Of a DNA stretch of 54,090 bases, positions 6,992 through 52,055 are shown in pieces. The translations under genes were made by a program, and so were the position numbers. Location: the NCBI GenBank assembly GCA_002256025.1, contig NKIB01013649.1, positions 1-54,090 of the forward strand, given 5' to 3'. Every line of letters begins with the position of its first letter. Position 1 is the first letter of the stretch. A model generated the notes under the pieces. The model did not search any database, was not told where the DNA came from, and saw nothing but the letters and a program-made list of their open reading frames with translations. The stretch is from Asterionella formosa (lineage: Eukaryota).

Positions 6992-7359
6992 TGAGTGATA
7001 TGCTGATGATGTGATGCTCGATTTCGACATCAAGCATTACATCCAAGCTGATTCTGGATTCCGTTTCTCCATATACTCGTGTGTAGAATTTGTAGTATGT
7101 AGATGGCTGGTACAAACGGAACACACCGACCTCAGTGTCCGGTAAAATGGTTGTGCAACTCAACATGATCCCATCCTCCTCCCCCAGCATGCTGCATCCG
7201 TGATAACCGATGGTTCCCTCCCCACCATGACGTTTTGGACGGCTGGTATTAATTCATAAGAATAATTTATATTTAATAATTGTTCGCTATGTACCGCCCA
7301 CTCCATATTATGTACCGCCGGTAGTATGTACAGTGGGAATACACGCACAATACAATAAA

Positions 7360-9531
7360 ATGCTACTCCAACAAACAGCTCCCAACATCATTCTTTCCTC
7401 CTCATTAGCATCCTGTTCCAAATGTAGGTGTCTATTCCTGCTACTACTACCGGTACTCTGGTGTCAGCCATCCATTGGTTTTGATATTGTTATTGTAAGA
7501 ACACCAACAACGACGAAGCCAAGGAGGTATTCAGCATCAGTATCATCATGTCGTTCTACAACTACTGGTACTGGTAGAACACCTAGAACTACCGGCTTTA
7601 CATCAATTACTACTACTACCATGAGGATGATAGACAGTTCGAATTGCTATGCCGGCATGTTTGATCCATTAAATAGGATAATGCCATTATCAACATCACT
7701 AAATCAAACATTGGATCAAACATTGGATACCATACGATTCAACTATGAAACAAAAGCTCCAGCGGAAATCATCAAAAGTTTGGCACAATATGGATACCAG
7801 TATTCATTTGTGGCTAACAATATTGCGGAAACAACTACTACAACATTTGATACTACCGACAATAACAACAAACAACAAATAGATGGTCCACTCCTGATTG
7901 ATCATTCCTACTTGTACTACTCGTCATCTGTGCTACAACGCGTTCCTGGATGTGTTGCCAATGTTAACATTCAAACAACGTTGATACAACAACAACAATA
8001 TGACAAGGAAAACCCGCAAATGGTGCTTTATGTAAATGGCACATCCGATGCCATTCTTAGTCGAGGCTTGTTGGCACTATTGGCTCATGTGATGCAGGGA
8101 ACATATGCTCAAGACATTCTACAACTTGTTCCTGAAACTATGGCAGATCGACTGGGATTACGGGTGGCACTTTCTAAGGGGCGAAATGATGGTTTGGCAA
8201 GTATGATGAGATTGATACAATCACAAATTAGAGAATTGTTGGTGTCAATGGCAGTGGGAGTGGTGAATTCAATGGACAATACTACTACCAATGCAACGAA
8301 TAATAAAGAGTATTCACTAGTACAAAAACAAGACAAGAAGAAACCAACGGTTGCCATGTTACTTTCGGGTGGCGTCGACTCGGCCGTGGCACTGAATATA
8401 CTTGCATCACAAGGCTACCATGTCACTGCGTTTTATCTGAAAATTTGGTTAGAAGATGAACTAGCTCATCTTGGAACGTGCCCATGGGAAGACGATTACA
8501 ACGTGTGCGTTGAAATTTGTCAACAAGCCAATGTACCATTAGAATCGATTTCCTTGCAACAGGAATACAAAGACAAGGTCATTTCGTATACCATTGCACA
8601 AGCGCAAAAAGGACGTACTCCCAATCCAGATATCATGTGCAATTCGAGAATTAAATTTGGGTGTTTTTATGATGCCATTCAAACAAGAGGATTCGATTTC
8701 GTGGCATCAGGACATTATGCGCAAGTGAATCAGACAAGTGATGATACAGCCACAATGACAACTCGATTGCTTCGAGCACCCGATCCCATTAAAGATCAAT
8801 CGTATTTCTTATGCGCGCTCTCGCAGCAACAACTACAACGTGTTTTGTTTCCGATTGGACATTTGGAAAAACATGCTGTTCGGCAATTGGCAGAGGAGTA
8901 TAATTTACCCAACAAGAATCGACCTGATTCGCAAGGTTTGTGTTTCCTTGGCAAGGTCAAATTTGAAGATTTCTTAGCAGCGTATTTGGGAGAATCACCA
9001 GGAAACATTATTGATGCACAAACAGGAATGATCATTGGTAGACACAAGGGTTTATGGTTTCACACCGTGGGACAACGAAAGGGCATTGGAAAAGTACTCG
9101 ACCCCAAGGCGACAGCACGAGGTCCATGGTATGTTGTCGCCAAGGATCCAAAGCATCAAATTGTGTACGCGTCAAATGAGTACGATGAACAAGCATTCGC
9201 CCAGGCCAGGTCAGATGTGTTTGTGGAAGACATTCACTGGATTTCGGGATCACCTCCTGCATCTTTAGTTGATGGTCCAGCTAGATTTGACATGAAGATT
9301 CGACATGGACCTAGGCTTGTAACAGGATCATTGGAACTGTTGGACGATGGCGTAGCCAATGTGAAACTGGACCAGAAAGATGGTGGACTAGCACCAGGTC
9401 AGTATGTGGTATTTTACGAACCAGACGGAATCGAATGCTATGGTGGTGGAGTCATTAGTGAGCGACACTGGGCTCGGTTTCTATTTGATCAAAATAAACT
9501 TGCACCATCATCAATTAACATAAACAATTAA
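7360..9531 (+). CDS. mnmA: tRNA-specific 2-thiouridylase MnmA with fused N-terminal SufE-like domain, probably plastid-targeted
   Basis: MnmA motifs SGGVDS (PP-loop), TPNPDIMCN, ASGHYA, KDQSYFL, DSQGLCF, TVGQRKG, APGQ. SufE motifs RVPGCVANV, GTSDAILSRGL, LSKGRNDGLASM. Hydrophobic signal ending SIG-F, then an S/T/R-rich transit-like segment. First ATG at 7360. Confidence 0.92.
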   Translation: MLLQQTAPNIILSSSLASCSKCRCLFLLLLPVLWCQPSIGFDIVIVRTPTTTKPRRYSASVSSCRSTTTGTGRTPRTTGFTSITTTTMRMIDSSNCYAGMFDPLNRIMPLSTSLNQTLDQTLDTIRFNYETKAPAEIIKSLAQYGYQYSFVANNIAETTTTTFDTTDNNNKQQIDGPLLIDHSYLYYSSSVLQRVPGCVANVNIQTTLIQQQQYDKENPQMVLYVNGTSDAILSRGLLALLAHVMQGTYAQDILQLVPETMADRLGLRVALSKGRNDGLASMMRLIQSQIRELLVSMAVGVVNSMDNTTTNATNNKEYSLVQKQDKKKPTVAMLLSGGVDSAVALNILASQGYHVTAFYLKIWLEDELAHLGTCPWEDDYNVCVEICQQANVPLESISLQQEYKDKVISYTIAQAQKGRTPNPDIMCNSRIKFGCFYDAIQTRGFDFVASGHYAQVNQTSDDTATMTTRLLRAPDPIKDQSYFLCALSQQQLQRVLFPIGHLEKHAVRQLAEEYNLPNKNRPDSQGLCFLGKVKFEDFLAAYLGESPGNIIDAQTGMIIGRHKGLWFHTVGQRKGIGKVLDPKATARGPWYVVAKDPKHQIVYASNEYDEQAFAQARSDVFVEDIHWISGSPPASLVDGPARFDMKIRHGPRLVTGSLELLDDGVANVKLDQKDGGLAPGQYVVFYEPDGIECYGGGVISERHWARFLFDQNKLAPSSININN

Positions 9532-11167: not shown

Positions 11168-11359
11168 AATGTGAGGTAGCTTGAAATGTGTTCAGGGAAT
11201 ATAAAATGAGTGAGCAAAATGTTATTTAATTATATTTGCTAGCTGGGTAGACCTAATCTTGGAATGTGAGGTAGCTTGAAATGTGTTCAGGGAATATAAA
11301 ATGAGTGAGCAAAATGTTATTTAATTATATTTGCTAGCTGGGTAGACCTAATCTTGGAA
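11168..11359. repeat. Perfect tandem duplication, 2 x 95 bp
   Basis: AATGTGAGGTAGCTTGAAATG...CTAATCTTGG starts at 11168 and again at 11263; no mismatches seen. Confidence 0.95.
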
Positions 11360-11604
11360 AGTGGGCATTTGAGAACCCTTGAAACTGCATAGTCCATTTT
11401 GACTTTTTACCCATGAACTAGTAGCAAAGTTCATTACAAAAAATCTCAGTACTAAATGGTGGGCCAAGGGGGGAGCAACTCGGAATTTTTCCCTGCAATG
11501 AACAATTGCATACTTGCACATATAGGGAAAGGAATCATAGCCACAAAGGAAAGTAGATTCGTGAATACGTCAAGATAGTTCAATACAAAGCCTCAATTCA
11601 ATAC

Positions 11605-11838
11605 ATGTACAACAAGTTATCGAATACAAGCACAAATACACTGGACTGCAATGGCATATCCAGGGCATGCAAATTTTCCAAGCAGAGAACAATTTCAAAA
11701 TATGTCAATGGGTGCTGGCTTCCCACAGGGGACCAGAAGAGACTGATTCAAAAGTGGAAACCTTCTACTGTTCGGAACACGAAAATAATGAAAATTGGAA
11801 TTAATGCAAAAACGGAAGAAAAATCTTCAACCAGTTGA
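11605..11838 (+). mobile_element. Fragment of non-LTR retrotransposon ORF (post-RT region)
   Basis: ISKYVNGCWLPTG resembles the K(F/Y)xxxWLPxG motif preceding the C-terminal Zn knuckle. Same motif at 22852-23050. Confidence 0.35.
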
Positions 11839-12039
11839 GAGTTGCACAATCTTTTCAGACCAGAGGGAGTAAAAATCTATCAACGTTGATAGAAAAGTAT
11901 TTAGTGAAAATATTGAAGTCTCCATGTCCATTTTTGTTTCAATATAAACTATGATCTATTTTATAGCCCATTTGTACTCCTTTTTACAAGGCAAGTATTT
12001 ATTGCGCTAACAGGCCAGCAAGTCCTTTGCTTCCCTAGT

Positions 12040-12332
12040 TTTCTTACCATAGGTGAGTGCCCAATCACCTTTCGCAAAGGTGATTGCTATCTTAGCCGCA
12101 GTGTTAGTAGGGGAAACTCCGACCGCCTTGGAAAGCGGCACAAGCTGCTTGTAGGGGTGCAAACCCGGCGCACTATTTGCTTCTTGACACCAGGCACACC
12201 AGGCACGACTGTGGAGGACGGTAAGGAGTGTGGGAGTCGAACCCAACAATTGCTTCTCAAACAATTTGCGGGAATCAAACCACTCAACCTCAGATTAAGG
12301 ACAACATGCTCAACCGACTAAGCCATACCCTT
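12040..12332 (-). ncRNA. tRNA-derived (Lys-CTT-like) SINE-like or structured RNA element
   Basis: Minus strand starts AAGGGTATGGCTTAGTCGGTTGAGC (A box, D arm), has a CTT anticodon-like loop, a degenerate B box GGTTTGATTCC and a second clean T arm TGGGTTCGACTCCCA (12245-12231). Then several hairpins, including an 11-bp perfect stem at 12062-12086. Anticodon and first T stems mispair, so it is not a functional tRNA. Confidence 0.55.
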
Positions 12333-12493
12333 ATTTCTGTTTCAATATACACTCTAGCTATTCATATATTCTTTTGTATCAACCATGCAACTTCATGGCA
12401 TAGGTCATGAACGATAGTGAAAAAATTTGCTAATAGGATAACATTTTCATATGACTTTTAGCAAAACCATTATTCTGAAAGATGTTAGGTGTA

Positions 12494-13777
12494 TCAGTTC
12501 TGAAATCTAAGAATTTTCGACCTCAATTTGAGCCAGAATAACAACGAACTCATGACAACAACAAATTCAATTCCCTGAACAACAAGCATGATGTCATCAG
12601 TATAGCCCTTGGTTGGAATCATTGCGGGACTGAGGTCACCAATATCTTCAGCATGCATCCCAGAGTCCAAGACTGTTCTGTTTATATGATCCATCGCTTC
12701 AATGCTATTATCTTCATGTTCCTCATTGGCTAAAGATAATGGACAGCCCTGAGCTACATAAGTCATCCATTCCTGCAAAGTATTATCAAAGTAGAAGTAC
12801 AATTTTCCATCTTTGTCTCTCACATGACTCTGCATCGGAGTGTGTGTTTCAACAAATGTTTCATTGGGGACAGCAAACCTGGTGTCATTTCGTATTATTG
12901 ACTCACCAGCATGACTTCCAGACATCAAGTGACACCATTCCTTCAAATGCGCCTCATTCACGTCCAAGTGGATACTGTTGCGTACCATCATTGGATTCCC
13001 ATGAATACGAAATCCAGTTTTAGAAATTGGATAATTTTTCACTTTAACTAATGTTTTGGAGCGACCTTCCCAAGTCGGACAGTAGCTTGAACCCATGCTA
13101 AACCTTTTGGCAGTGCCATTATTGAAAAGGCAATATGACTTGGCTGTGTACGGATATGCATCCAAGCCAAAACCTGAATCCAAAGCCAACAACTTTGTGG
13201 AATGTTTGAGAGTGTACATCCATTTCCCAAAAGAGATATAGGTCGTTTTCAATTTCTGATAATGTAAAATAAATGATTTGATGGATTGTTTCTCCTTGAG
13301 CCACAGAAACTCATCAATATCGATTATGAAAGCCCAATCATAACTAGCAGCATAGATGGATTTTTGAAGGCACAAACGATGAACAACCTCCTGTCCATGT
13401 TCTCTGCCACCGCCATTATACTGCGTCATGGTTACATATGGTAGATTACGAAGCTCTTGAAATCTATGGAGAGCAGTTATCTCTTTACGATACCAAAAGA
13501 ATATGTGATCGAACCCAATCAGTCGATAGTACGACACAAAGGCAAAAATAGGATCGAGAGTAAGGTTTCCGAATAAGGTGCGATGGCAGACGGCTGCAGA
13601 TATACCTGAATCATCTCGAAACTTTATGTAATTGGATTCTCGAACTGTTATCGGATTCCTTGCGTAGTTGCGATTGCGCCAATTGATTCCATTTCTAGCC
13701 TTTTGCTCTGTAGTTATAGCAGTGGAGAATACCAAGCCAACAACAATCAGCGGAAGCACCTGCTTCTGTTGCAACAT
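12494..13777 (-). CDS. Glycosyltransferase family 92 (DUF23)-like protein
   Basis: FVSYYRLIGFDHIFFW and YDWAFIIDIDEFLW (DxD) motifs, N-terminal hydrophobic anchor and C-terminal TM helix. First ATG at 13777. Confidence 0.75.
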   Translation of the reverse strand: MLQQKQVLPLIVVGLVFSTAITTEQKARNGINWRNRNYARNPITVRESNYIKFRDDSGISAAVCHRTLFGNLTLDPIFAFVSYYRLIGFDHIFFWYRKEITALHRFQELRNLPYVTMTQYNGGGREHGQEVVHRLCLQKSIYAASYDWAFIIDIDEFLWLKEKQSIKSFILHYQKLKTTYISFGKWMYTLKHSTKLLALDSGFGLDAYPYTAKSYCLFNNGTAKRFSMGSSYCPTWEGRSKTLVKVKNYPISKTGFRIHGNPMMVRNSIHLDVNEAHLKEWCHLMSGSHAGESIIRNDTRFAVPNETFVETHTPMQSHVRDKDGKLYFYFDNTLQEWMTYVAQGCPLSLANEEHEDNSIEAMDHINRTVLDSGMHAEDIGDLSPAMIPTKGYTDDIMLVVQGIEFVVVMSSLLFWLKLRSKILRFQN

Positions 13778-14493
13778 CACTAGTTGGCATATGACGCCAC
13801 GCGTGAGTCTCAAGTTCCCCTCAAGGTTAAAACCTCAACAACGATGAATGATATACACAAATATAATGATTCTCATTAATGGCAAAAGCAGTTTTGAGTT
13901 TGATCTCTGCCTCGAAACAAAATAGATTTGAGGAAACAATGCACGTCTACAGCTTAATGAAGCCAGAAGTGGATGCTGATACGTGCATGCCGTTAGGAAT
14001 CTTTGCATTTACTTTTATGCAAATATACAAATTAGTAGATGCTATAAATTTAATTAAATAAATATCGCTAATTGTTGTTGGTTTACTAAACACATTTCAT
14101 ACCACAGGATCTTTTAAAGTACACGTACAAGTATGTCCTTCACCAGGTACCAGGTACCAGGGTACGGTAGCGGGACGATCCAAGGATACCCGAACTGGCA
14201 GTACGACGGACAAATAAATGATTTCATCGTGATTGTCACAGGCCACACAGGCAGAGGTGCCCCCTCACATCATCAGGCAGTCATTCTCCATGATTTATTC
14301 TTACTTCTAGATGTAGTACCGGTACTGGTACGCAAATACCGGTATTGTAAGATACTGGTACTTGGAGCTCTATGATATAGCTCAAAAATAATCGTCATTG
14401 CTCGGGCTCTCGTTCCTCCTCTCATTGCACCGGTAAACATATCTGAATCCATCATTAAAACCATTCCTCATCACAACAAGACGACGAAGAAGA

Positions 14494-18510: not shown

Positions 18511-18771
18511 TTAAAACTTGTTTCAGGAGCATTGCTACCATGAATGATGAAATTGCAAACTGGTAAAAATTTTATGATATGAATAATACTAATGTTGCCG
18601 ACACATTTATATTTCATATTTGTATGCTGCTAATTAATAGATATAATCATATACCGGTAAAGTAATATCAATAGTCTATTTTGTCTATACTACGACGAGT
18701 ACAGCTGTGTCCCTTTCTCGTGCTGATGGTGTGGTTAGAAAATATTTGATACTAGGTCTACCAGACTTATT

Positions 18772-19860
18772 CTATTCAACACCAGTGTTACATTGGTTCA
18801 ACCTTGAAATTTTTGGTAATGATGTGCAGGATAGTAGGACTGTATGTTTACGGAAGAACCCACTCAAAGCATCATATCTTGTTGTTTTCTCATTGTGGAG
18901 GATGAACAACCCTGTTGAGAGAAAACGATTTTGAAATGTTGGTACTAGAAATTGCACCAGTAGCTTCCGCACATGTAGTCATGCTGCTGATGTGTTCGCC
19001 TTGAGGTTCCACAATCGCCTGGCTGCTGGTTGTCTGGGTTGATGGCAATAAAAAATCCAAAAGGGACTGTAATTCTTCGTGATTGGCAACTAAAATCAGA
19101 GTTGAAAATAGGATTATTGACTGGGGATCAAATCGAGGCGACATATAATAGACGAACTTCTTACATAGGGAGGAAGCAATGCATACTGTAATGCTTGAGG
19201 AAGCTAGGTCTGTATATTTGCTTGTTGTCAACAGTTGAGTTGATGGTTCGTACCAGTAGAGTACACCTGGTGTAGTAGGGACAGTCTTTCACATTGGTAT
19301 CCCATTTCAGATTGAAGACGCAACTATTCGCTCCTTTTGAGCTTGCAGATTTTGACAAAGGGCCCTCACACGAGACTGATGCGGACAGTTTCATTGTCAT
19401 ACTAGGAGATGAGTCCATACTATCCAGCCCGCACAGATGCTCTGCTGCCATGGCTACCGGTATTCTCCGTGTATGACGACCGTTCAGTCGAATCGACGCT
19501 CGCATTTGTACAACATAACAGCCATCACACTGACGGCTTGTCCATTATGAATCGCACTACATAGCAAAAGGAAATTATAGATGCCTCGCCATTGGCTGCT
19601 TTCTCGTTTGTCCACTCCAAGCGACGCGAGCAAGTATACTGTTCCTGGTACTACTGCTGGGATGCCGGTATATCTCTTCGGTGACATTACAATGTATCGC
19701 GACGATGGATTTCGTTCCTTTCCTACCTGTCACTAGCTATAGCAGCCAGTGGTAACTCCATACTTCCCCAACGTCTGTAACAGTTGTAGCATTCGCATTT
19801 TTTAAGCAGATGCTGACAGTGGCGTTCGCAATTCACGTTGTCACGTGCGATTGTATTGGC
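18772..19860 (-). pseudogene. Pseudogene paralog of the coiled-coil gene at 27241-28227, copy 1
   Basis: Broken frames give AIVEPQGE..AEATGAISSTNISKS and LSGFFRKHTVLLSCTSLPKISRLNQCNTG, matching the C-terminus of the 328-aa protein. SAIHNGQAVSVMAVMLYKCE resembles QAMSKSRIVSISVLYVE. Confidence 0.7.
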
Positions 19861-20719
19861 TGATGTCTCATCAAAGAGAACAACACGACGTCCCCATCTA
19901 TGTAGGATCTAACGTGGGATTCCTGAGTTGTTTCCTATTAATTCGCACTCTGCCTTACAAGTACTTGAATTGATGACTCCTGTGTTTCATACACATATAA
20001 AACCATTCATGATACTATCGTCACCCGTGACTATTGTTAAATTATGCTACAATATAAATTCCATGTTTTTAGACTACATTTATTTACCATCATTAATAAT
20101 AGTATTCGTCTCTCCAGCACTTTTTGATTTCAGTGAATGGTTCGTTCACGTCTAGTATGTCTTGATTAGGCGAATCGGTATCAGATATAGGTAGTACCTG
20201 GTACTATGGAACATGATACTGGTACAACGACCAGGTGTACCAATAGACAGTATGTAGGCGACAAAATAGTACTTCCCTAATGAACGTGCAGGCCAAGACT
20301 TTCAAGACGTGCGTGAGAAATACCTAGGCATATTACCAGGTACCGAATGCACATTCTGCCAAGATTTACAAGATGTTCGTGAGAGAACCCCACTTTTTTC
20401 ACACCAGGAGACAGCAGTCATGGATTTCAATACTCGACTTGCTCGTACGTTCTGTACGAAGAATCTTTGGAGCTCTCATTTCTGTGTTCGGTTTGATCTA
20501 CTTCAACAAAGAAGAACATAGCCAGCACTACGAGAAGCCGGGCATCAGTTGCAATCCTCCACGAGGACACCTCGTGGAGACAGTACTAGGAGTTCTTTGC
20601 TTCTCATTCGCAAACAAACCATTATTATTTTCATTTTGTTTTGTCTCATAAAACAAATTTCCTTCACTTGTAACAGTCAAGTTCTATAGCTACACTAAAA
20701 AAGAAAATCATCATCCAAC

Positions 20720-21700
20720 ATGAAGATCACGGCTGCTACTTTTCTCGTCCCAATCCTCCTTCTCGTGAAATACGGCCCTTCTGCGGCCCAAGAGGAAGAA
20801 CACTCCATTCGTGGCCTCAAGTCGCCACCCGCTCCAGCGCCTTACACAGTTACTTTTGATCAGTCACTCACAAACCCTGGTGTGTACTGGGGAGACGGTA
20901 ATGGGGGTGATTTTTGGACAGTTGGTATCAGTAGCACTAACAATGTCAATGGAAGGAAACTCAAGATTGGTCTGCGTGGCCATAAACGTTACCGAGCAGT
21001 ATACCCTCAGTTGAACCTACATGGTGATTACATTTTCAACGTGGGCACAGGATTTAAACAAGATGGCACCACCCCCACAGGATTGCCCGAGTGGAGCTTT
21101 GACTATATGTTTGATTCCGATGTTAATTGTCCCAGCAACATCACCACCTGCACATCCCTTGCGACATATGCGTATGAAGTGGCAATGGATGTAGATCCGA
21201 CCATCAAGACTAAGTGGATTAAGTACGATCCAATCAACCAGGACTGCTATGACCATGGGCTCGGGAACACTGCCACTGTCAATGGCAACGCAACCACCAA
21301 GGTCGAGCTTGATTGCAATGTACCCGCAAGTGCAGGAATATACCAGGCTGCGATTAATGGTGGAACATGGCATGTGGCACAGAATTCCTTCAACTACGGC
21401 TTCATCGTGAATTTTGCTCCTGATCACTGGGGAGGATTTGCGGCAAATAATCCTCTTGTCTACACTGAAGGCATCTACGACGTTGTGCTTTCCATCAAGA
21501 ACAAGAAAACGGGAAAGGTATTGGTCAAGACGTCTATTCGCTTCCTTGTCAAGAACGATTCCAAGTGCACTATTCGAGGAAAGTGCTTCCCAACTGTTGC
21601 GGCCGACTGCAACAAGTCCAACATTGGCAAATTCAACATGTTCTTCAACAACAAGGATACCAAGGCATGTGAGGATTTTGTCGCTGGCATCAAGCAGTAA
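20720..21700 (+). CDS. Secreted 326-aa protein, paralog A, with bacterial-like extracellular beta domain and Cys-rich tail
   Basis: Intronless ORF with signal peptide (..PSAA-Q), RGL motif, core motifs KIGLRG, WSFDY, DVDP, DPIN, DH, VAQNSFN, and a four-Cys C-terminal module. Confidence 0.9.
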   Translation: MKITAATFLVPILLLVKYGPSAAQEEEHSIRGLKSPPAPAPYTVTFDQSLTNPGVYWGDGNGGDFWTVGISSTNNVNGRKLKIGLRGHKRYRAVYPQLNLHGDYIFNVGTGFKQDGTTPTGLPEWSFDYMFDSDVNCPSNITTCTSLATYAYEVAMDVDPTIKTKWIKYDPINQDCYDHGLGNTATVNGNATTKVELDCNVPASAGIYQAAINGGTWHVAQNSFNYGFIVNFAPDHWGGFAANNPLVYTEGIYDVVLSIKNKKTGKVLVKTSIRFLVKNDSKCTIRGKCFPTVAADCNKSNIGKFNMFFNNKDTKACEDFVAGIKQ

Positions 21701-21973
21701 AGGTGCATTGCCCGATCCCAGCAAGAGTAGTACCTGGTAGGATGAATAGGTGCATACGTTTATATTCATTGTAGTTCAGAGTGGTGTTGCTGATCGAAGG
21801 AGGAGGATGGCGGTATACCAAAAAAGGCAATCCTGCGCTGTGTGCATGCATGTTATTTATTATGATATACTTAAACTATCAAACGACATGATCTTTTATT
21901 CTGGTATTTGTAATGAGTACCGGTAGGCTATCTATGAACATAACAGTGAAATATACATCAGGTATGTATTCAA

Positions 21974-22006
21974 ACTACCCGTATACTTCGTTGTCCTGGA
22001 CCCCCC
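21974..22006. mobile_element. Left TIR-like end, same family as 848-879
   Basis: ACTACCCGTATACTTCGTTGTCCTGGACCCCCC, located at the end of duplication unit 1. No partner TIR found downstream. Confidence 0.55.
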
Positions 22007-22851
22007 AACGTACACTGCCGTGACTGAAATTGACTGAATTTGAACCCCTACGACTACGGTAGGCAAAAATTAAAATCCCGGAAAATCGCGCGTATGCATT
22101 TACATAGATTCCTTTTCGAATTCGCTAAATATATATATATATATATATAATATAAATAGCTATGTGTATACACGTACCCTTCACTACGATCAACATGTAT
22201 GTGTCATCCGACCCGACGGTCTGGTAAACGTCCCGGCATCTCGGCAAATATTTGAAGTGCACTCTTTGCTTAGGATTGGTATGCATATGTCAAATGATAT
22301 AATCATCTACCGGTGCCCGTGGTGGATTTGGTACCAGGTCCTAGTATGTTAAAGTATTACCTTTTTGATAGATCTACTAGTAGTATATCATTAGACAAAG
22401 AAGACTATAGATAGAGACGTTCGTTTCTCTTTCCGTTTCTATATTCTTATTGTGAGTTTACTAATCTAGTTTAGGTTGTTCTGTTTGAACAAACAAACGA
22501 GCTATTCTCCAAATGCTGTTTGCATTTCTAGAAACATACAATCATAGATAGACCCATGTCTATCTCACACTTACTGATCATAGGTTTTTAACCATGATCA
22601 TTCATTTTCAAACTATCGGTCTTCCGAAATAGCTTATATCGTCCGGCTCATTATAGGCGGAGTAACAAGGTATAATGTGTGGTTGATGAGAGCTTGCTTG
22701 GTACATCAAAGCTGACTCATTCGAATCGTTTGACTCGTTTGACTCCGAGTCATAACTACGTAGATGAGCTCACTTTAACATACCTGATACACCTGCTACC
22801 TGGTTTTTCTCCGAAAAATATATAGTTTATCGTTTCCTATTCAAATATTCC

Positions 22852-23050
22852 TTGGGTGCATTTTCTCAAGCGTTCAAAGCCAAATCGGCAACTGAACGAG
22901 CAATGATCACAAAATTCATTCATGCATGGCTACCAATGGGTTCCAGGAGGAGAGCACTCATACTATCCAAAGGGAGTACATCTGTTCCTCATTGCAAGGA
23001 GCTTGAAACCACAGAGCATCTCCTCACCTGTAACAATTCAAAAATGAAAC
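22852..23050 (+). mobile_element. Fragment of non-LTR retrotransposon C-terminal Zn-binding region
   Basis: ITKFIHAWLPMG...VPHCKELETTEHLLTC fits the CxxC..ET..H..C knuckle that follows LINE RT; the first Cys is lost. Confidence 0.6.
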
Positions 23051-23369
23051 ACAATAGAGGTCTCCAAATGAATTTTTTGAGTCTCAAAAGTTTTCCAGTA
23101 GTATGCATATTACAAATGTTGCTGACTCATTTATATTTCATATTTTGTATGCTGCTAATAAATATGAGTCATAGCAATGTAATATGCATACTGGTAAGTG
23201 TACCAGTAAATATGATGCATGTTATAGTCTTTACAGTAAATGCTTCAATAGACAATATTGTCCAACGGTAATATCGGGAAACTATTTTGTGTATACTACC
23301 AGTACAGCTGTGTCCCTTCCTCGTGCTGATGGTGCTGTGAGAAAGTATTTGATACTGGGTCTACTAAAC

Positions 23370-24450
23370 TTATTCTATGCAATACCAGTGTTACAATGGT
23401 TTAAACTTGAAATGATTGGTAATGATGCTGTGCAGGACAGGACTGCAGGTTTACGGAATAACCCACTCAAAGTATCTTGTCTTGTTCATTCCTCATTGTG
23501 AAAGATGATCCCTTCCGGGAGAAATCGATTTTGAAATGATGGTACTAGAAATTGGACCAGTGGCTTCCACATATGAAATCATGCTGTTGTTGTGTCCTAC
23601 TTGAGGATCCACAATCGCCTGGCTGGTTGTCTGGGTTGGCAATAAATAAATTCAAAAGGGACTGTAATTCTTCCTCTCTGGCAACTAAAATCAGCGTTGA
23701 AAATAGGATTATCGACAGGGGATCCAATCGAGGCGACATATAATAGACGAGCTTTGTACTTAGGGAGGAAGCAATGCATAACATTGTAATGTTAGAAGAA
23801 GCTAGGTCTGTATATTTGCTTGTTGTCAACAGTTGGATTGATGGTTCGTACCAGTAGAGTACACCTGGTGTAGTAGGGCCAGGGACAGTCTTCCACATTG
23901 GTATCCCATTTCAGATCGAAGACGCAACTATTCGCTCCTTTTGAGCTTGCAGATTTTGAAAGGGCTCTCACACGAGACTGATGCGGACAGTTTCATTGTC
24001 ATACTAGGTGAGGAGTCCATATTGAGCCCGCACAGATGTTCTTCTGCCATGGCTATTCTCCGTGTGTTACGTTCAATCGAATCGACTCTCGCAGTAGTAC
24101 AACATAACAGCCATCACACTGACGGCTTTTTCATTATGAATCGCACTACATAGCATAACAAGGATATTATTGATGCGCCATTGGCTGCTTTGCTTCTCGT
24201 TTGTCCACTCCAAGCGACACGAGCGAGTATACTGTTACCGGTACAATATCTCTTCGGTGACAGTTCAATTTATCACGGCGATGGTTTTCGCTACTTTTTC
24301 TACCTTTCATTGGCTTGTAGTGGTAACTCCATACTGCCTCATCGTTCGTGACAGAAGCATTCGCAATTTTTTGGCGGATGCTGACAGTGGTGTTCGCAAT
24401 TCATGTTGTCACCTGCCGTTGTATTGGCTGATGTCATCAAAGAGAACAAG
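23370..24450 (-). pseudogene. Pseudogene paralog of the coiled-coil gene, copy 2
   Basis: Nucleotide-homologous to 18772-19860 with multiple in-frame stops. SAIHNEKAVSVMAVMLYYCESRF resembles QAMSKSRIVSISVLYVEAKL. Confidence 0.7.
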
Positions 24451-24612
24451 ACATCTCCATCTGTGCAGGATCGCACGTGGGATTCTAGAGTTATTTAGTG
24501 TTCGCACTCTTACAGTATTAAAAAAGTACCAGCACTTTCATTGATGATTCCTATGTATCATACACATATCAAACCCTTCATAATACTTTCATCACCCGTG
24601 ACTGATGGTTAA

Positions 24613-24627
24613 GGGCCGTTCTTATCT
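24613..24627. mobile_element. Solo Harbinger-type TIR remnant
   Basis: TAA followed by GGGCCGTTCTTATC, identical to the first 14 nt of the TIR at 6000. Absent at the equivalent site in unit 1 (~20040). Confidence 0.6.
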
Positions 24628-25284
24628 TTCTGTCACACTACATACATTACATGTTTTAGAACATATTCATTTACCATTTTTAATAATATTATTCGTCTCC
24701 ACAGCTCTTATTGATTTCATTGAATGGTTCGTTCACGTCTAGTATGTCATCATCATTAGTCGAATCGGTATCAGGTACCTGGTACTACCAGTTGTATTTA
24801 GCCGTAGGGAGTAGTCGCCTGTACCGAATGAACATGCAGCCCAAGACTTTCAAGACGTGCGAGAGAAATACCCAGGCACACTATCTGGTATAACAGGTAC
24901 CGAATGCACATGCAGCCAAGATTTGCAAGATGTGCGTGAGAGAACCCCACTTTTTCGACACCAGGAGGCAGCAGTCTTGGATTTCAATACTCGGTTTGCT
25001 CCTATGTTCTGTTGGAAGAATTTGGAGCTCTCATTTCAGTGTTCGGTGCGTTTGATCTACTTCAACAGAGACGAACGAAGCCAGCACTACGAGAAGCCCG
25101 GCATCAGTTGCAATCCTCCTCGTCAGGTACACCTCGTGGAGACAATACGAGTAGTTCTTTGCTTCTCATTCGGAAACAAACCATTATTATTTTCATTTTG
25201 TTTTCGTCTCATAAAACACATTTCCTTCACTTTTTACAGTCAGGTACTAGATACACTAACTAACGAAGAAAATCATCATCCAAC

Positions 25285-26265
25285 ATGAAGTTCACTGCTG
25301 CTACTCTTCTCGTCCCAATCCTCCTTCTGGTGAAACAAGACCATTCCGCGGCCCAAGAGGAAGAACACTCCATTCGTGGCCTCAAATCGCCACCTGCTCC
25401 AGCGCCCTACAAAGTTACTTTTGACCAGGCACTCACAAACCCTGGTGTGTACTATGGAACAGGTAATAATGTTGGTGATCCTAATACATGGACAGTTGGT
25501 ATCAGCAGCACTAAAAATGTAAATGGAAGGAAACTCAAGATTGGTCTGCGTGGCAAGAAACGTTACCAGCCCGAATACCCCCAGTTCAACCCACATGATG
25601 ATTACTACATTTTCAATGTGGGATCTGGATTGGATAACTCTCTTCCGCCCGTCTCTACAGGATTGCCCGAGTGGAGCTTTGACTATGAGTTTGATTCCGA
25701 TGTTGGATGCGCTGCCACCACTGCGACCAGTAACACCTGTAATCCCCTTGCCACATATGCGTATGAAGTGGCAATGGATGTAGATCCGACCATCAAGACA
25801 AGATGGATTACAGGCGACCCCATCAATGTGCTTTACGCTGACCATGATTTCGGGCAATCTGATACGGTTCAAGCAACCAAATATAAAGCAGGCAACCAAC
25901 CAGACTATCATACTGCAATTACTGGTGGAAAATGGCATGTGGTACAGAATTCCTTCAACTACGGCTTCTTAGCGGGGATCCCTCCTGAACACTTTAGTGG
26001 ATTTATATTGAATCGTCAACTCGTCAATACTGAAGCCATATATGACGTTGTGCTTTCCATCAAGAACAAGACAACGGGACAAGTTTTGGTCAAGACGTCT
26101 ATTCGATTCCTTGTCAAGGACCAAGAGAAGTGCAATATTCGAGGAAAGTGCTTCCCAACTGTTGCAGCCGACTGCAACAAGTCCAACATTGGCAAATTCA
26201 ACATGTTCTTTACAAGCAAAGATACCAAGGCATGTGAGGACTTTGTCAAAGGCATCAAGCAGTAA
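25285..26265 (+). CDS. Secreted 326-aa protein, paralog B
   Basis: Same architecture as 20720-21700, with near-identical termini and divergent internal loops. Confidence 0.9.
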   Translation: MKFTAATLLVPILLLVKQDHSAAQEEEHSIRGLKSPPAPAPYKVTFDQALTNPGVYYGTGNNVGDPNTWTVGISSTKNVNGRKLKIGLRGKKRYQPEYPQFNPHDDYYIFNVGSGLDNSLPPVSTGLPEWSFDYEFDSDVGCAATTATSNTCNPLATYAYEVAMDVDPTIKTRWITGDPINVLYADHDFGQSDTVQATKYKAGNQPDYHTAITGGKWHVVQNSFNYGFLAGIPPEHFSGFILNRQLVNTEAIYDVVLSIKNKTTGQVLVKTSIRFLVKDQEKCNIRGKCFPTVAADCNKSNIGKFNMFFTSKDTKACEDFVKGIKQ

Positions 26266-27240
26266 AGGTGCATTGCACGTTCCCATCAAGAGTATTACCT
26301 GGCAGGATGAATAGGTGCATACGTTTATATTTATTGTAGTTGTGGCTGATCGGAGGAGGAGGACGGTGGTATACCAAAAAAGGCAATCCTGCGGTGTTTG
26401 CATGTTGCTTACATACCGTTTATTATTTATATTTTATGACATGATGTTTTATTCTGGTACTTTGTAATGACTGCTGGTAACTACGTACATGCACATCAGG
26501 TATTTAAAATACAGATATATGCATACACATGTATTTATAATATCGGTATACAGGTACATGATATTTGAAGCTTCTTCGATGTTATTCATCTATGTACCGG
26601 TAACTGCACAGCACTCCTCTTATGCTACGTACTACCGGTATATGGCTCGGTCCAATGTTTCTGTAAACAAGAGGAAACCACCCGAGGTAGGTTTGTGTTG
26701 ACATGGTATGTATAGAAACTATAACCCTATCCACTAGACTACTCCAATCACCATGGCTAGTCATGGTGCTTTTTTCTTGTTGTAATTGCGTTCATCTGCC
26801 CTCGTCAACTGCAGACATTCTTCATAATGATGCAACAGAAGGGTCAATGACTAGATCGAATTGTAAAAAGAGAGAAAGTTCGGAAGGCAATTTCATCGGT
26901 CATCGGCTCAATTGAAAGTGAATTTCGCCAGCGCCCTTAAACGTTTTGATGATGCATCTTCAAATGATTTGACATTTATCGAACCGGTAGTCTATACTGC
27001 CTGCAGTTCCGAGCAAAATATCATCGATGATGCAAGCATGACAGCGTCAAAACAAAGAGGTGTTATTCGACGTCGTTGGGGAGTGTTCCTTATGATTGCA
27101 TACCAGTACCTGAATCATGTACCGGTATTGTGCACTCAGCAATGGTCTACGAACATAGGAGTATACATTAATAAAAGCCAGCACACGGATACGAAGCAGG
27201 GGAAGCGAGTACATGATTTAATGATGGGTCTCGATTTAGT

Positions 27241-28227
27241 CTATGCAGCACCAGAGTTACATTGGTTCAAACTTGAAATAATTGTTGGCGATGTCCAGGA
27301 AAGGACTACAGGCTTTCGGAACAATCCACTCAAAGTCTTGTTCATTTCTCGCTTTGTAGGATGATTCCATGTGGGAGAAGTCGATTTTGATATGGTAATA
27401 CTAGCAATTGCATCAGCAGCTCGTACACATGCTGCACTGCTCCTGCGTCCACCTTGTGGAACCACAATCGTTTCGTCCGGGTTGGAAATAACTAGCTTAA
27501 TTGAAGAAGTAGATGTTGCAGCTCGCACAAGCAACGGCATTTTCAATCCTCCTTGTGGAGAAGCCCTTTTCGGTGAAAGCGATCTTGTCCAAGAAGTACA
27601 ATTAGTAATCGAACCAGCTCGCACAAATGATGTTCTGCGTACACCTGATGCTGCTGGTTCAGTGATCTCCTCATCCAGGCTGGGTTGAATGACTGGCTTC
27701 AGAAGTCCACGTAATTGGGCCAATTGTTGCTGTTGCTCCGCAATCGTCGAGATATACTTCTCTTTGAGTTTAGAACGATTCTTTCCAACTTTGGCATGTA
27801 ATAGATCAAAGTAGTTTTGACACAACTTCTTTTCGTCTTTCATTTGATCCATTAGGGTATCCATTTGGTCGCAAACATCGCTGCACATCTTTTTTTGAAT
27901 ATGAGCTTGATGTTCCAGTGCGCCCAACTGATGTTCAGTTCTGCAAAGTTTTGCTTCAACGTATAAGACACTGATACTCACGATTCGGCTTTTGCTCATG
28001 GCTTGAGCGTATACAAGCGAATTGCTGTTCGTCCCCAACTCTGTTTCACTGGCTTGTTTGTATTGACGCTCTAGGGCAGCTTTCCGTCTTTTCATCGTTG
28101 CCATATCCAAACGATGGCGGAGTGCAGTGTGGCGATTGGTAGCACGTAAACGTTCGAGCTCTTGTCGCGTATCGGCAAGTTGTTGATCCAGTGCAATCAT
28201 AGTGGTGGAGGTGGTTCTCGTCGTCAT
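27241..28227 (-). CDS. Coiled-coil protein of unknown function
   Basis: 328-aa ATG ORF; heptad-like Q/E/K/L-rich N-terminal half and S/R/P-rich tail. Confidence 0.75.
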   Translation of the reverse strand: MTTRTTSTTMIALDQQLADTRQELERLRATNRHTALRHRLDMATMKRRKAALERQYKQASETELGTNSNSLVYAQAMSKSRIVSISVLYVEAKLCRTEHQLGALEHQAHIQKKMCSDVCDQMDTLMDQMKDEKKLCQNYFDLLHAKVGKNRSKLKEKYISTIAEQQQQLAQLRGLLKPVIQPSLDEEITEPAASGVRRTSFVRAGSITNCTSWTRSLSPKRASPQGGLKMPLLVRAATSTSSIKLVISNPDETIVVPQGGRRSSAACVRAADAIASITISKSTSPTWNHPTKREMNKTLSGLFRKPVVLSWTSPTIISSLNQCNSGAA

Positions 28228-29239: not shown

Positions 29240-29517
29240 ATGTTGTTGTTGCAAAAATCGGAGTGATGAGGGGCGGATGGAAATGACGAGCCAAATTACA
29301 TTACTTGAACTGGTACATTATCCTACCAAGAAATTCGAATACAGGAATCAAATAGAAAAAATACATATAATAATTAAATATATGTAGTCAAAAGGGTTAC
29401 TATTTAAATTACGAGGGCATTTATCACAATTATTAGATGATATAACGAAAAATTATGATCAGATGATCATAATCCTATGATGCATGATGGAAATATGATG
29501 GTTTTTATTTGCAGACG
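29240..29517 (-). mobile_element. Inverted copy of the left end of the 1061-4945 transposon family
   Basis: Reverse complement aligns with ~1061-1335, including the TIR TTTTTATTTGCAGACG ending at 29517. Confidence 0.85.
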
Positions 29518-30149
29518 TTCTTTGATCTTTTCCTTACTTTCTTCTGCTTCTTTGTCATCTCTATCTCTTGCAGCCCTGTTAGCTGTAATTGTGGCAAGTG
29601 CACCATACCCCAAAAACGCAAGGAGTCTTGGCTGAAGTTTTCCATTGACAATGATGCATGACATGATGAATGCTTTTTTACATTTTACACGGATGTCTAG
29701 TATTATGCATTTTTATGCTGCTGGTGCCGTATATCACAGAATAATGTTGGACTGTTGTTAGTTGGTAAAAACAACTTCATGTCCAATTAGAATCCACAAA
29801 AATCATACTGACACATCAACAGACAATTTTGATCAAACATCTTGTTATGTCATAACATGTTTTACTATTAGAAACTTTATCAGAGATTTTTTTATTTTCT
29901 CAGTCCTAAGGAAATAATCCAGAGGTTGTAATACTGGCATGTCAGATTCTTTCCAGATAGGCTGAATTCAGACTAATATACTTGATTTGCTTGCTCAACC
30001 TAAATTTCAATCTGCCCATTGTCCCTGCCTTGTTGTTGAATTCATTCTATATTTCTTTCAAAAAAACTCAAGGTTTAAAACAAAATTCAGATACATGAGA
30101 AGTCGCTCTGTCTGTCAAAATAATCGCAAAAATATAAGTGTGGAATCAT

Positions 30150-39750: not shown

Positions 39751-39754
39751 TTGG

Positions 39755-41734
39755 CATCTTATGATTATGATCATTTGATCATATTATTTCAGTATATTAT
39801 CTAATTAGTATGATAATGATAATTGTAAACTAAATAGCAACTGTTTTGACTCGCTGGTGTGCATATTCAACAATTATGTATTTTTATTTTTATATTGTAC
39901 CTAATTTGCTATTGTATTTAAGTTTTCTCATAGGATGATGTACCAGGAAAAGAAATGGGATTTTTAGTTCATAAATCATCTTTTGCTCTGTTCGCAACAC
40001 TGAAACAGCAATGCCAAATGGAATGATTGGCTGATAGCTAGCACCTTCAATTATTCTTCAGGTTATCATGATTGTTTGTTCAATAGTTATCACGCAGCAG
40101 TTAGTAATATAGTATGTTTGTAGGTGTTCTGTGATGTTTTCATAGAGAAATCATATGTACTATAGCACGCAACAAGCGACAGAACTACAAATGGTATTAA
40201 AAAGTCATTCAATTTGTAGAAAACGATATTTTAGAACATATTTCATCCAGAATTCAAACACAACGCACCAAAGAGGCACGAAAGAGCACGACGAATGAAA
40301 GGACCCAAAATGTAAGAGACATTCCTGGCTGGTGAGGACATTTTGATTGAAAGTAATTTCGATTCATACTTCGACCTAATTGTTGTATCTGCGCCAAAAG
40401 ACCAAGTTAAATATCATAAAAGTCTTGAAAGATGATTAATTATTACCAGATGACGCACAACAATTCATCTACTAAATTTTGCGACTCTGTCCAAGGATTT
40501 ACCGGTAGTATCACTCTACCAGTGATACCCAACAAGGAGAAGCAATCAACACATGATGATAACCTTGAAAGTGAGAAGATTGAGTCAGTGAGATATTTGA
40601 ATACAACTAATAAACTAGTAGCTGCTTTGTCTGTCAAGAGATTGATTAAAACAATTAATCAATGTTTTATTGATTCATATATCGAAGAAAAAGAATTTCT
40701 TGAGAACATCAGCATCATGAAAAATCCTGACAAATCTTTTTGTGCTAAAAAATATTTCCCAATCAATCTTTCATCTCACTGAATCTTCCGAAAACAATAC
40801 ACAACTGCAACGATGGATAGAGTTTATGCCACCTATTGATTTGATTGGTATTACAAAAAAGAAGTACTCCATTTTAAATCACTTGAATATTGGGATTTTG
40901 AAACGGTTGTTTCCTGTATCCAATATCTGGTTCATGAACTACCTCCAACTGACGTTCATGTAAGATAACCCAGAAGAAGACATTGGTGGAATGGTTTATA
41001 ACGGCAGCTGTTACCCACTTATTCGTGTCAACGAAAAAGCGATAATTGTCAAAAAAAGGAAAAGATCACGACCTGGAAACAAATCATTTTGTCCACAATC
41101 TTTTCGCACTCGATGATGGAATATGTAAAATCCGGAAACATGGAGAAGATGCAATCGTGGACGATCATTTTGATCCAGTATTTCATATTGCTCAAAAGTA
41201 TTGGATGCAATTGGGATAAAGAAGTCTTTCCCTCCTACTCAAAAAGCATCATCTTCCAGAAGGGATGATACCGAAATCAGATTCCTTTTATTTTCATTTT
41301 GACAAATGCTCATGATTTCACATTATTTCATTCAGAACGTGATAGCAGATGGTCATGTGGACCATTTCCAGTGGTGAAAGTTTTGGAAACTCTTTTACAA
41401 CTTCAAAGAAAAAATGTAATCTCCATTTTTGGTCATCGTGAAAAATTTGAGCGACTTGTAAAGATGTCTCAATAATCATGATGCTTGTTTCATGTATTTG
41501 AATCATTTTTAAGAAATTATGGAAGCCAATGGTGTTATGATTATGATTGTATGATCATACATATAGGTATTAAGAGTATGATTGTATGATTGTACTTATA
41601 GGTATTAATAGTATGATTGTACTAATAGTATGAATTGATCATAGATAAAACCTAAACAATTTCATGTATGGAAAATCCTGTGCCACTTAGTGCTGATCCT
41701 ATGCACACCAGCATGATACTGTTAATTTGCAGAC
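39755..41734 (+). mobile_element. Third, older member of the 1061-4945 family with a different interior
   Basis: 39755-39950 resembles 1094-1270 (TAGGATRATGTACCAG). 41528-41734 resembles 4760-4945 (GAAAATCCTGTGCCACTTAG, ending ATTTGCAGAC). The extreme left TIR is missing. Confidence 0.65.
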
Positions 41735-41749
41735 TGGGTGTGGATGTGT

Positions 41750-42580
41750 TCGTTTCTAGATGAATTGACCATGCGAACAAGGCCGCTTCTTCATTGAACA
41801 ATCTATCTGTCCTTATGAGACACAGAAGGCCCAGAAAGGTATGACAAACACACCCTGTTTTCTTGCAGGGTTGTGGAAATGTGAGAAGAGTTTGCAGTAG
41901 ACATCGAGCAAAAGCTGGAAGTGTGGAGCTATGTATGGTCTTTGAATGTTGCTTCAAGGAGGAGCCTTGTTGGCAGAAGAGAAAATTTTTGATTCCTGTA
42001 TGTGACTCTCCAATCTACCAAATTCCTCGCATGAACATGCTGTGAGTGGCGATTTTTCTGTTGTGGCTTGTCATTTGGTGTTGAACTTGATGGAGATACA
42101 GGTTGACTTGATTTGTTCATGTATTCACCATCTATATCCCTTTTGTGCCAGATTTGTTCGGTCTGTGCAGATCCTAAATTGCCAGGCTTTTTGGACCAAG
42201 ATACATAACAAAGAGATATCATCCTGGGTATTTGGCTGAAAAATGGTCCATTTCTCAGGGGAAACATACACCACTGGTGACAGCTGGTGTAATCAGTGGT
42301 GTTATAGGTGGTACAATTGGTGATGATAGTACTGGAAGTTGATATGGTGGTTTGAAAGATGAAAGAATGTTTGGTGTTGATGGATTTTGAATTAGCGGTA
42401 TGAAATGTGGTGCATAAAAATTGAATAGTAAGGCAGTAGTGTTACTAGAGATTCTAAAAAAGGTTCAGTGGGTGATGTGGCTGGTGGTTGTACTAGTGGT
42501 GATAAAGGTAGTTGTATTGGAGAAGTCAATGGTGGTTATACTGGTCGAGTGACTGGTGCTTGCACTGATGGTGTGACGGG
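41750..42580 (-). pseudogene. Decayed Pro-rich stalk plus possible Hint (hedgehog/intein) domain gene
   Basis: Minus strand reads PVTPSVQAPVT..QPP repeats, then GVCFP*E, SLAI*D, THSMF and KQGVFVIPF, in the order expected for Hint motifs (CFxG, LxIGD, HxxF, GVYAPFT). Confidence 0.35.
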
Positions 42581-42584
42581 TCTT

Positions 42585-42766
42585 TCAGGGAGGTACGTGA
42601 AACTCCGTACTTCCTCGCTTTTGTGTATCGTGCACAGACCTCGCTGTTTTTTCAGAAATTTTGCAAAATTCTAGTCGCGCGTCCTTCTTGAATTCGTCGA
42701 ATCGAGTTTGAGCTCTAATCAGGCATTAAACATTCATGGGCAATATGAACATTGCTCATCAGACGG
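42585..42766 (-). mobile_element. Partial MITE, inverted copy of 52056-52305
   Basis: Reverse complement aligns with 52056-52305, with deletions. Terminus CATTGCTCATCAGACGG followed by TA. Confidence 0.8.
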
Positions 42767-51211: not shown

Positions 51212-51770
51212 AATATATAATATACCAGTAATACACCTTACTGGTACATATGATTTTTGATACCAGTACTCGTTGTCACACCATGCTCAATGCATTGTTC
51301 TGGGTTTCAAAAAAGCAGTCGTTATCCATTTGAACAGTGGATAATGACAAATATTTAACACACTGGGAGTTGATGGAAACTCAGAAGTTAGAAAAGTCAT
51401 GCACAAAAACGGTGTTTTATCTAAAATCGACCTCGCATCACGTTTTCCCAAAGACCGCAAAAGAATGCGAAGTTCACAAAAGACCGCAGAAAAACGTCGT
51501 ATATCCGGGTTTTCCCATTCTTTTGCGGCCTTTTGAGGCTTTTGCGAACTTATGCGAAGTTTTGCGGTCTTTTCCAAACTTCGCATTCTTTTGCGGTCTT
51601 TTCGTTCGATCTCCGTCATTGTGTTAATTATTTGTCATTTATGCATATCCACTGGTCAAATGGATTGTGACTGCTTTTTTGAAACCAATAACGATGCATT
51701 GAGCATGGTGTGACAACGAGAATCAAAAATAATATGTATCAGTAATGTGTATTACCGGTATATTTTATTA
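51212..51770. mobile_element. Foldback-like MITE with ~150-bp inverted arms
   Basis: 51212-51361 is the reverse complement of 51621-51770 (e.g. CTCGTTGTCACACCATGCTCAATGCAT). The interior is homologous to 52303-52505. Confidence 0.8.
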
Positions 51771-52055
51771 TGTTCATGGTTTTCTATCTACACAAAATCG
51801 AGCAAACTCAGGAATCAGTACATACCAGGTAGTAGGGGATACGTTCGGTTCTGAAACTACCGGTATGTTATCATCAGCATACCGGCACGTGAAGTTACAT
51901 CAAGGTGCCGATATGTACCCTGATCGTAACAGGTACCAGGTACCTTGTACCACTGGTACCTGCTACCGGGTAGCTACTGGTAGAGGGTTGAATGATAGAA
52001 ACGAAATACCGGGACTCCACCTGGTAGCAGGTAATCCGTACCAGGTATCGGTATA

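Follow-up and report, generated by a model that had tools for sequence, protein, structure and literature searches.

The minus-strand element at 11951–12332 of the window (the whole 54,090-nucleotide stretch of Asterionella formosa DNA that was analysed, contig NKIB01013649.1) is very probably one diverged and likely inert copy of a high-copy, non-coding, tRNA-derived SINE of a freshwater diatom nuclear genome. The element is short, non-coding, interspersed and present in high copy number; its head carries A and B boxes, and its copies have a discrete 5′ end together with some 5′ truncation. The proposal of a sequence-only reading that this is a SINE-like element whose Pol III promoter derives from a tRNA is supported by a target-site duplication, by a high copy number bounded by that duplication, by a common 5′ end and by one 5′-truncated copy. 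The features of the window copy are given below, where L001 to L004 denote four copies on metagenome contigs, and X1, X10, X13 and X16 denote four public runs.

11951–12332, minus strand: whole SINE copy, 382 nt, with composite tRNA-like head, body and 3′ tail; based on the direct-repeat borders, the depth jump and the alignment to the four metagenome copies
12333–12353, no strand: target-site duplication next to the element's 5′ end, 19/21 identical to 11930–11950
11930–11950, no strand: target-site duplication next to the element's 3′ end, 19/21 identical to 12333–12353
12220–12332, minus strand: composite tRNA-like head; based on the sequence and on weak tRNA-clan matches of 16–19 bits in the window copy, L001 and L002
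12314–12325, minus strand: A-box-like motif TGGCTTAGTCGG, with 1 match in the window where 0.33 are expected; TGGCTTAGTGG in L001 and L003
12271–12281, minus strand: first B-box-like motif, GGTTTGATTCC, with 1 mismatch; GGTTCGATTCC in L001 and most copies (loose-end consensus at 12266)
12233–12243, minus strand: second B-box-like motif and second T arm, exact, GGTTCGACTCC; invariant in 5/5 aligned copies
12216–12261, minus strand: most conserved block of the family, with the top depth bin of 1.6 million and a run of invariant alignment columns
12155–12194, minus strand: variable stretch, where the window copy has 12 plus 6–7 extra nt relative to L001, L002 and L004; based on alignment gaps, on loose ends at 12157 and 12194 and on a drop in depth
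12062–12086, minus strand: perfect 11-bp hairpin in the body (CAATCACCTTT / AAAGGTGATTG), from an inverted-repeat search; partly kept in L002 and L004
11951–12039, minus strand: 3′ tail with no poly(A) and no simple repeat, ending ...AATGGGCTATAAAATAGATCAT; common with L002 up to GGGCTATAAAA, while the copies of X10, X13 and X16 stop matching at 11954–11959

The borders of the element are marked by a 21-nt direct repeat, 19/21 identical, that was found by a repeat search of the window and that encloses the 382 nt at 11951–12332. At the spacing of 403 nt that separates 11930–11950 from 12333–12353, this pair is the sole 19/21 match among 53,667 window positions; when every spacing between 200 and 600 is considered (21.5 million comparisons), four positions outside a tandem array reach 19/21, and these represent three repeat pairs including that of the SINE. 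Because the direct repeat encloses 11951–12332, the 5′ limit of 12332 given in the sequence-only reading is right, and its 3′ limit of 12040 is short by about 90 nt, the unit reaching 11951. No terminal inverted repeats were found at the two ends of the element (11951 and 12332) by the repeat search of the window. The tail, as read from the window sequence, finishes ...GGGCTATAAAATAGATCAT, without poly(A). A 134-aa antisense stop-to-stop frame runs over the SINE, with no Pfam family and only four database look-alikes, and the element is read from its sequence as being without coding content. Among the 46 ORFs of at least 120 aa in the window, an RT domain is present in none, and neither a partner LINE nor a reverse transcriptase was seen there.

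When metagenome contigs were searched for a 21-nt motif taken from the family's most conserved block, four loci on four contigs were obtained. Their likeness to the window copy is as follows.

L001: 82% identity over 222 nt aligned
L002: 81% identity over 341 nt aligned
L003: 84% identity over 144 nt aligned
L004: 73–77% identity over 150 + 53 nt aligned

In all four head-bearing copies, the similarity starts at one point in the alignment, 7–8 nt before the A box, and the flanks upstream of this point are unrelated. The shared 5′ start reads (A)AGGGAATGG in the window copy, L001 and L003, and AATAGAATGG in the more diverged L002, with the aligned start letters being (A)AGGG and AATAG, respectively. 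L004 is truncated at its 5′ side, being unrelated down to AGAAGCAATTG, and loose ends at 12254–12266 in X1, X10 and X16 represent further copies that begin there. Two of the loci, L001 and L003, are cut by contig ends. The start of the L001 contig (about positions 1–30) is presumably a Nextera adapter string (CTGTCTCTTATACACATCT...), and since the contig ends in this string, the SINE copy of L001 looks 3′-truncated only through an assembly artefact. The target-site duplication is clear in the window copy and was not found for L002 and L004, where a search of the surrounding sequence gave only 8–9-nt matches, neither of the two cases being convincing. Scans for a 20-nt core motif gave no matches in a prokaryote genome collection and none in viral contigs. 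The window copy is not recent, to judge from its sequence, because it carries many private changes, two insertions within 12155–12194 and two mismatches in its duplication, and it is probably inert.

The abundance of the family was assessed from the contigs of the four public runs, which were aligned to 11600–12700 at 80% likeness. X1 contains 97% of the words of this stretch, and 4170 of its contigs align to it, with the following likeness to the window copy.

At least 99%: 522 contigs
95–99%: 1255 contigs
90–95%: 1542 contigs
Below 90%: 851 contigs

The mean word depth of X1 is 1027 in every bin of the flank at 11600–11932 and 1032 at 12340–12561, and it ranges from 6,982 to 1,613,604 inside 11933–12339; within the 37-nt resolution of the bins, the depth rises and falls at the borders set by the direct repeat. 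The ratio of SINE depth to flank depth in X1 is 7- to 1,570-fold, which is a rough guide, as summed contig depth is no copy number. The SINE is a dispersed repeat with sharp borders and roughly 10^2–10^3 copies, this figure being a ratio of summed contig depths. It also occurs in X10 (48 contigs), in X13 (8 contigs) and in the RNA library X16 (30 contigs). Element-like pieces lie inside X16 contigs of 1258–1863 nt, and one X16 contig of 244 nt matches 12005–12248 with three differences and leaves the flanks uncovered, a pattern for which DNA carry-over is possible; the RNA contigs of this library give no starts, ends or strand, and the library may contain DNA. None of the nine contig joints listed skips the whole SINE as an empty site would, and the contigs are uninformative on polymorphism. 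The runs that contain the locus are labelled as algae, freshwater or lake metagenomes.

The tRNA-like motifs by themselves would also fit an insert of organellar DNA, a tRNA-like gene or a functional non-coding RNA gene at a single locus. However, thousands of contigs with different flanks match in one run (X1), and the element gives no tRNA call and belongs to no Rfam family, so that such an explanation is improbable in the extreme. A further alternative is a DNA transposon derivative (MITE), or another dispersed repeat, that captured a tRNA pseudogene, since the existence of a repeat family with a flanking direct repeat does not by itself identify the mechanism. The target-site duplications of DNA transposons are 2–10 nt long, and the 21-nt duplication of the window copy is far longer; the ends of the SINE show no terminal inverted repeats, and the one-sided (5′) truncation fits reverse transcription. 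Although MITEs have been reported in diatom genomes, according to passages of PMC5859163, these properties make a transposon origin of the family very improbable.

The head of the SINE comprises, in order, a 5′ acceptor-like strand, a D arm with the A box, an anticodon-like arm, a first T arm, a short hairpin, a second T arm, ACTCCTT as the 3′ acceptor-like strand, and ACC. The A and B boxes that had been claimed for the head are confirmed, the A box at 12325–12314 and the B boxes at 12281–12271 and 12243–12233, and the claimed second T arm corresponds to the exact B-box motif GGTTCGACTCC at the last of these positions. Taken singly, the A and B motifs are within chance, the B-box pattern being found 6 times in the 54-kb window where 5.0 are expected, and the informative part is the order and spacing of the motifs on one strand, not each motif alone. 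The A box and the two B boxes are ordered on one strand within about 90 nt, and the distance from the A box to the first B box is 44 nt start-to-start; in tRNA genes, the spacing between the A and B boxes is approximately 44 nt. The motifs are cleaner in L001 and L003 than in the window copy. The assignment of the head to tRNA-Lys is one that we take to be plausible from the anticodon arms of tRNA-Lys.

No tRNA was called by ARAGORN in the window, nor in the five copies at the default and -ps settings, and Rfam 15 at the gathering score gave no match in the window stretch and no tRNA call in any of the five copies. When E values up to 10 were admitted, the only Rfam match in the window stretch was a 16-bit match to tRNA-Sec over the second T arm (gathering score 47), and the best tRNA-clan scores across the copies were 16–19 bits against the same gathering score. 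Because neither ARAGORN at its default nor Rfam at the gathering score calls a tRNA, the tRNA origin of the head rests on the motifs and on these weak matches. A functional tRNA gene was considered and rejected, as a cloverleaf call is absent in both ARAGORN and Rfam. The isotype given by relaxed ARAGORN (-ps70 -i) was likewise discarded, since it differs per copy (Ile, Lys, Gln) and is accompanied by many spurious calls in the AT-rich flanks.

Relaxed ARAGORN reads the whole head as an intron-containing tRNA closed by an acceptor stem. In its drawing, ACTCCTT pairs with the first bases of the element at 5 of 7 positions in the window copy and at 6 of 7 in L001, and is followed by ACC. The two T-arm regions align with each other with a score of 20–28 units, which in L001 corresponds to about 16 of 20 nt. 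The head could consist of two fused units or of a single tRNA that carries an internal duplication, and the latter may apply because the 5′ acceptor strand of the first unit pairs with the 3′ strand of the second. Dimeric tRNA-headed SINEs, such as the Twin SINE of Culex, carry two tandem tRNA-related units at the 5′ end. The head of the window family resembles them in consisting of two tandem tRNA-related units with similar T-arm regions, whereas its second unit, unlike that of the Twin type, keeps only a hairpin, the T arm and the 3′ acceptor strand.

An oligo-T run is found between the two tRNA-like units, with T7 in L001, T8 in L003, T4 in L002 and none in the window copy (12258–12266), from which it was lost or where it never existed; in X1, T7 results from the majority letters at 12262 and 12265. 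An oligo-T run of the T7 kind is expected to terminate Pol III, here after about 75 nt, and as most copies have such a run midway through the head, full-length Pol III transcription is not assured. Read-through may be sufficient, the run may be missing from the active masters, or the full-length RNA may be produced by another polymerase. A rival explanation takes up the last of these options and describes the family as a non-autonomous retroposon without a Pol III drive of its own, which would owe its full-length RNA to host-gene transcripts or to read-through by Pol II; the first tRNA-like unit with its oligo-T run would then be a separate module yielding only a short tRNA-like RNA. The presence of T7–T8 after the first T arm in L001, L003 and the majority of X1 copies argues for this explanation, as do the many copies that start just past the run (L004; loose ends at 12254–12261) and the element-like pieces inside the X16 contigs of 1258–1863 nt. 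However, Pol III initiation, and not read-through, would be expected to give the single start point that all four heads share, 7–8 nt before the A box; no run longer than T4 is found in the window copy or in L002, and the RNA contigs carry no information on starts, ends or strand and could stem from DNA carry-over. On this evidence, a family without its own Pol III drive is unlikely.

For a tRNA-derived SINE of the kind preferred here, Pol III would initiate at the tRNA +1 position and transcribe the element from the promoter inside the head, and the enzyme of a partner LINE would recognize the non-poly(A) 3′ tail of the SINE RNA. Target-primed reverse transcription at a staggered chromosomal nick would then produce the 21-nt duplication and the occasional 5′ truncation.

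The sequence-only reading had also placed the tRNA-like head within a self-cleaving fold, in which the SINE RNA would adopt an HDV-like ribozyme structure, the cut would fall 5′ of G12330 and the tRNA head would form a large insertion in J1/2. HDV-like ribozymes occur at the 5′ ends of R2/RTE-type retroelements, and the proposed cleavage site coincides with the 5′ end of the SINE. The strings on which the fold was built are present on the minus strand (GGGTATG at 12330–12324, CGTGCCT at 12207–12201, CTTACC at 12225–12220 and GGTAAG at 12048–12043), as are AGTGC and GCACT, and CTAT before GGTAAG. The window copy thereby has the helix order of HDV, with a P1 of seven pairs including a first G–U pair, a P2 of six Watson–Crick pairs and CTAT before P2′. 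It was conceded from the outset that P3 mispairs, and indeed the 12 nt between P2 and P1′ (GTCCTCCACAGT) form at most two wobble pairs as a "P3" and provide no P3 stem with an L3 loop and P1.1. The body had been described as hairpin-dense, a description that is contradicted by a folding stability no greater than that of dinucleotide shuffles (z = +0.30 for the 382 nt and z = −0.51 for the earlier 293 nt).

The helices of the proposed fold are broken in the other copies. P1 has 2–4 non-pairs of 7 in 4/4 other copies, P2 has 2–3 non-pairs of 6 in the two copies that cover it, and 4 of the 13 pairs of P1 and P2 are formed in the window copy alone. Covariation in P1 and P2 is nil, with 69.8% of cells pairing, a value equalled or exceeded by 398 of 500 shuffles. 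The AGTGC/GCACT that closes P4 is AGTGG/GGACT in L002 and is lost in L004. The majority letters of X1 also break both helices: on the plus strand, C>A at 12206 (167,558 of 171,340 depth) changes CGTGCCT to CTTGCCT with the loss of one P1 pair, and C>G at 12047 (281,680 of 293,203 depth) changes GGTAAG to GCTAAG with the loss of one P2 pair, these letters coming from the 40 of 89 variant rows listed and the partners at 12221 and 12325–12327 being seen only in the four loci. A consensus, which had been suggested as a check on whether the fold is restored, does not restore P3/L3 and also destroys P1 and P2. A consensus fold of three copies contains 61 pairs, 3 of them with a compensatory change, and has a covariation term of +1.68, values from too few sequences to back any conserved structure.

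The order of the two helices is at the level of chance. When P1 was defined as 7 bp with at most three G–U pairs and a start in the first 12 nt, and P2 as 6 bp of Watson–Crick pairs, P1 and P2 in HDV order arose in 84% of 300 dinucleotide shuffles of the earlier 293 nt, and the real sequence has 21 such combinations against a shuffle mean of 12.4. No ribozyme family of Rfam 15, HDV-type or other, matched at E up to 10 on either strand of 11700–12700 or of L001–L004, the HDV-type models being ones that score no pseudoknots and would not tolerate a 100-nt insertion. The Pol III start and the retroposition boundary account for the match between the cut site and the 5′ end. With the HDV-like ribozymes (HDV, CPEB3, drz), the window copy shares only the cut position at the 5′ end of the element and a nominal two-helix order; unlike them, the window family has no conserved helices, no P3/L3/P1.1 and no model match. 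The HDV-like pairings are best read as accidents of the private substitutions of the window copy, and a ribozyme in this family is highly improbable. The plausible HDV fold seen in one copy dissolved once other copies were compared.

The window copy lies close to a gene. A 446-aa ORF with glycosyltransferase domains occupies 12494–13834 on the minus strand, and the SINE is located 162 nt downstream of its stop in the same orientation, so this copy may belong to the 3′ UTR of the glycosyltransferase gene. The tail of the window copy contains AATAAA at 11998–12003 on the minus strand, where L002 and L004 have ATGAAA, and the plus-strand variant C at 12000 makes up 4,632 of 8,192 depth in X1. Behind the stop codon of the gene, this AATAAA could serve as a polyadenylation signal, if used by the host. 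A 95-nt unit is duplicated in perfect tandem (100%) at 11168–11357, which belongs to the same intergenic region and lies some 600 nt away from the SINE's 3′ side.

The window as a whole is eukaryotic DNA, poor in introns and with a G+C content of about 40%. A 766-aa frame at 7231–9531 on the plus strand encodes a SufE domain fused to a complete MnmA-type tRNA 2-thiouridylase, a fusion that is present in all diatom relatives listed. A metagenome protein is 99% identical to this ORF, and among the 120 matches listed, the organism-named relatives are all diatoms, at 54–60% identity, which identifies the host as a diatom by protein similarity.

Other repeats are scattered over the window. A tandem duplication extends over 18691–27431, its period being about 4.6 kb; its units are 76–97% identical, a third unit is partial, and it contains paired 333-aa ORFs (20699–21700 and 25264–26265) with no Pfam family. 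An array of 24-nt tandem units at 53449–54090 reaches the end of the window, and a related 111-nt stretch is found at 42471–42581, 11 kb upstream. An AT-rich repeat of 236 nt occurs in inverted orientation at 1060–1295 and 29283–29518 (92%), with a third partial copy at 39754–39851; it is unrelated to the SINE by blastn and may be a second mobile-element family. A nested inverted-repeat cluster at 51269–52445 (repeats of as much as 125 nt, 80%), whose arms have relatives 9 kb away at 42647–42745, has a foldback- or MITE-like look, and a 22-nt direct repeat at 49432–49453 and 49649–49670 (20/22, spacing 217) could flank another small insertion.

The family resembles tRNA-derived SINEs in being about 380 nt long, non-coding and of high copy number, in having A and B boxes at tRNA spacing at its very 5′ end, and in showing a common 5′ terminus, 5′-truncated copies, a target-site duplication and no terminal inverted repeats. 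It differs from typical members of this class in its composite head with two T arms, in the acceptor-like stem followed by ACC and in the oligo-T run inside most heads, and also in that the tail of the window element is neither poly(A) nor a simple repeat and that a partner LINE was not found in the window.

SINEs have long been held to be absent from most unicellular eukaryotes, a view for which passages of two papers (PMC5859163, PMC7466962) cite Kramerov and Vassetzky 2011. In these two diatom genome papers, 13 "putative SINE" copies covering 1,454 bp are given for Phaeodactylum tricornutum from automatic annotation (PMC5859163), and the SINEs of Cyclotella cryptica come from repeat annotation, with roles that are called poorly understood (PMC7466962). 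The window family shares the host group and the nominal class with these putative diatom SINEs, to which it may or may not be related; in contrast to them, it has a far higher copy number and explicit hallmarks of retroposition. Among the papers listed in full-text literature searches (20 of 415 in one, all on other organisms, and 22 in another), none was devoted to describing a SINE family of diatoms, and five motifs of the SINE occurred in no paper in the full-text search.

It is conceivable, and put forward here only tentatively, that this is the first explicitly characterized high-copy, retropositionally competent tRNA-derived SINE family of diatoms, common to freshwater and marine samples, with a head of two tRNA-like units closed as one extended cloverleaf (acceptor-like stem plus ACC) and a conserved oligo-T run between them, so that each copy would yield a short tRNA-like Pol III RNA and, by read-through, the full retroposition template. 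The interest of the family is modest, in that diatom SINEs have barely been described and have so far been only "putative" items of automatic repeat annotation, and it lies mainly in diatom genome biology and in the odd head with its internal oligo-T run. A SINE family would imply an active LINE partner in the diatom lineage. With roughly 10^2–10^3 copies in a widespread freshwater diatom, the family would be a marker for population and phylogenetic work, and it would also be a source of 3′-UTR variation, the window copy sitting just behind a gene.
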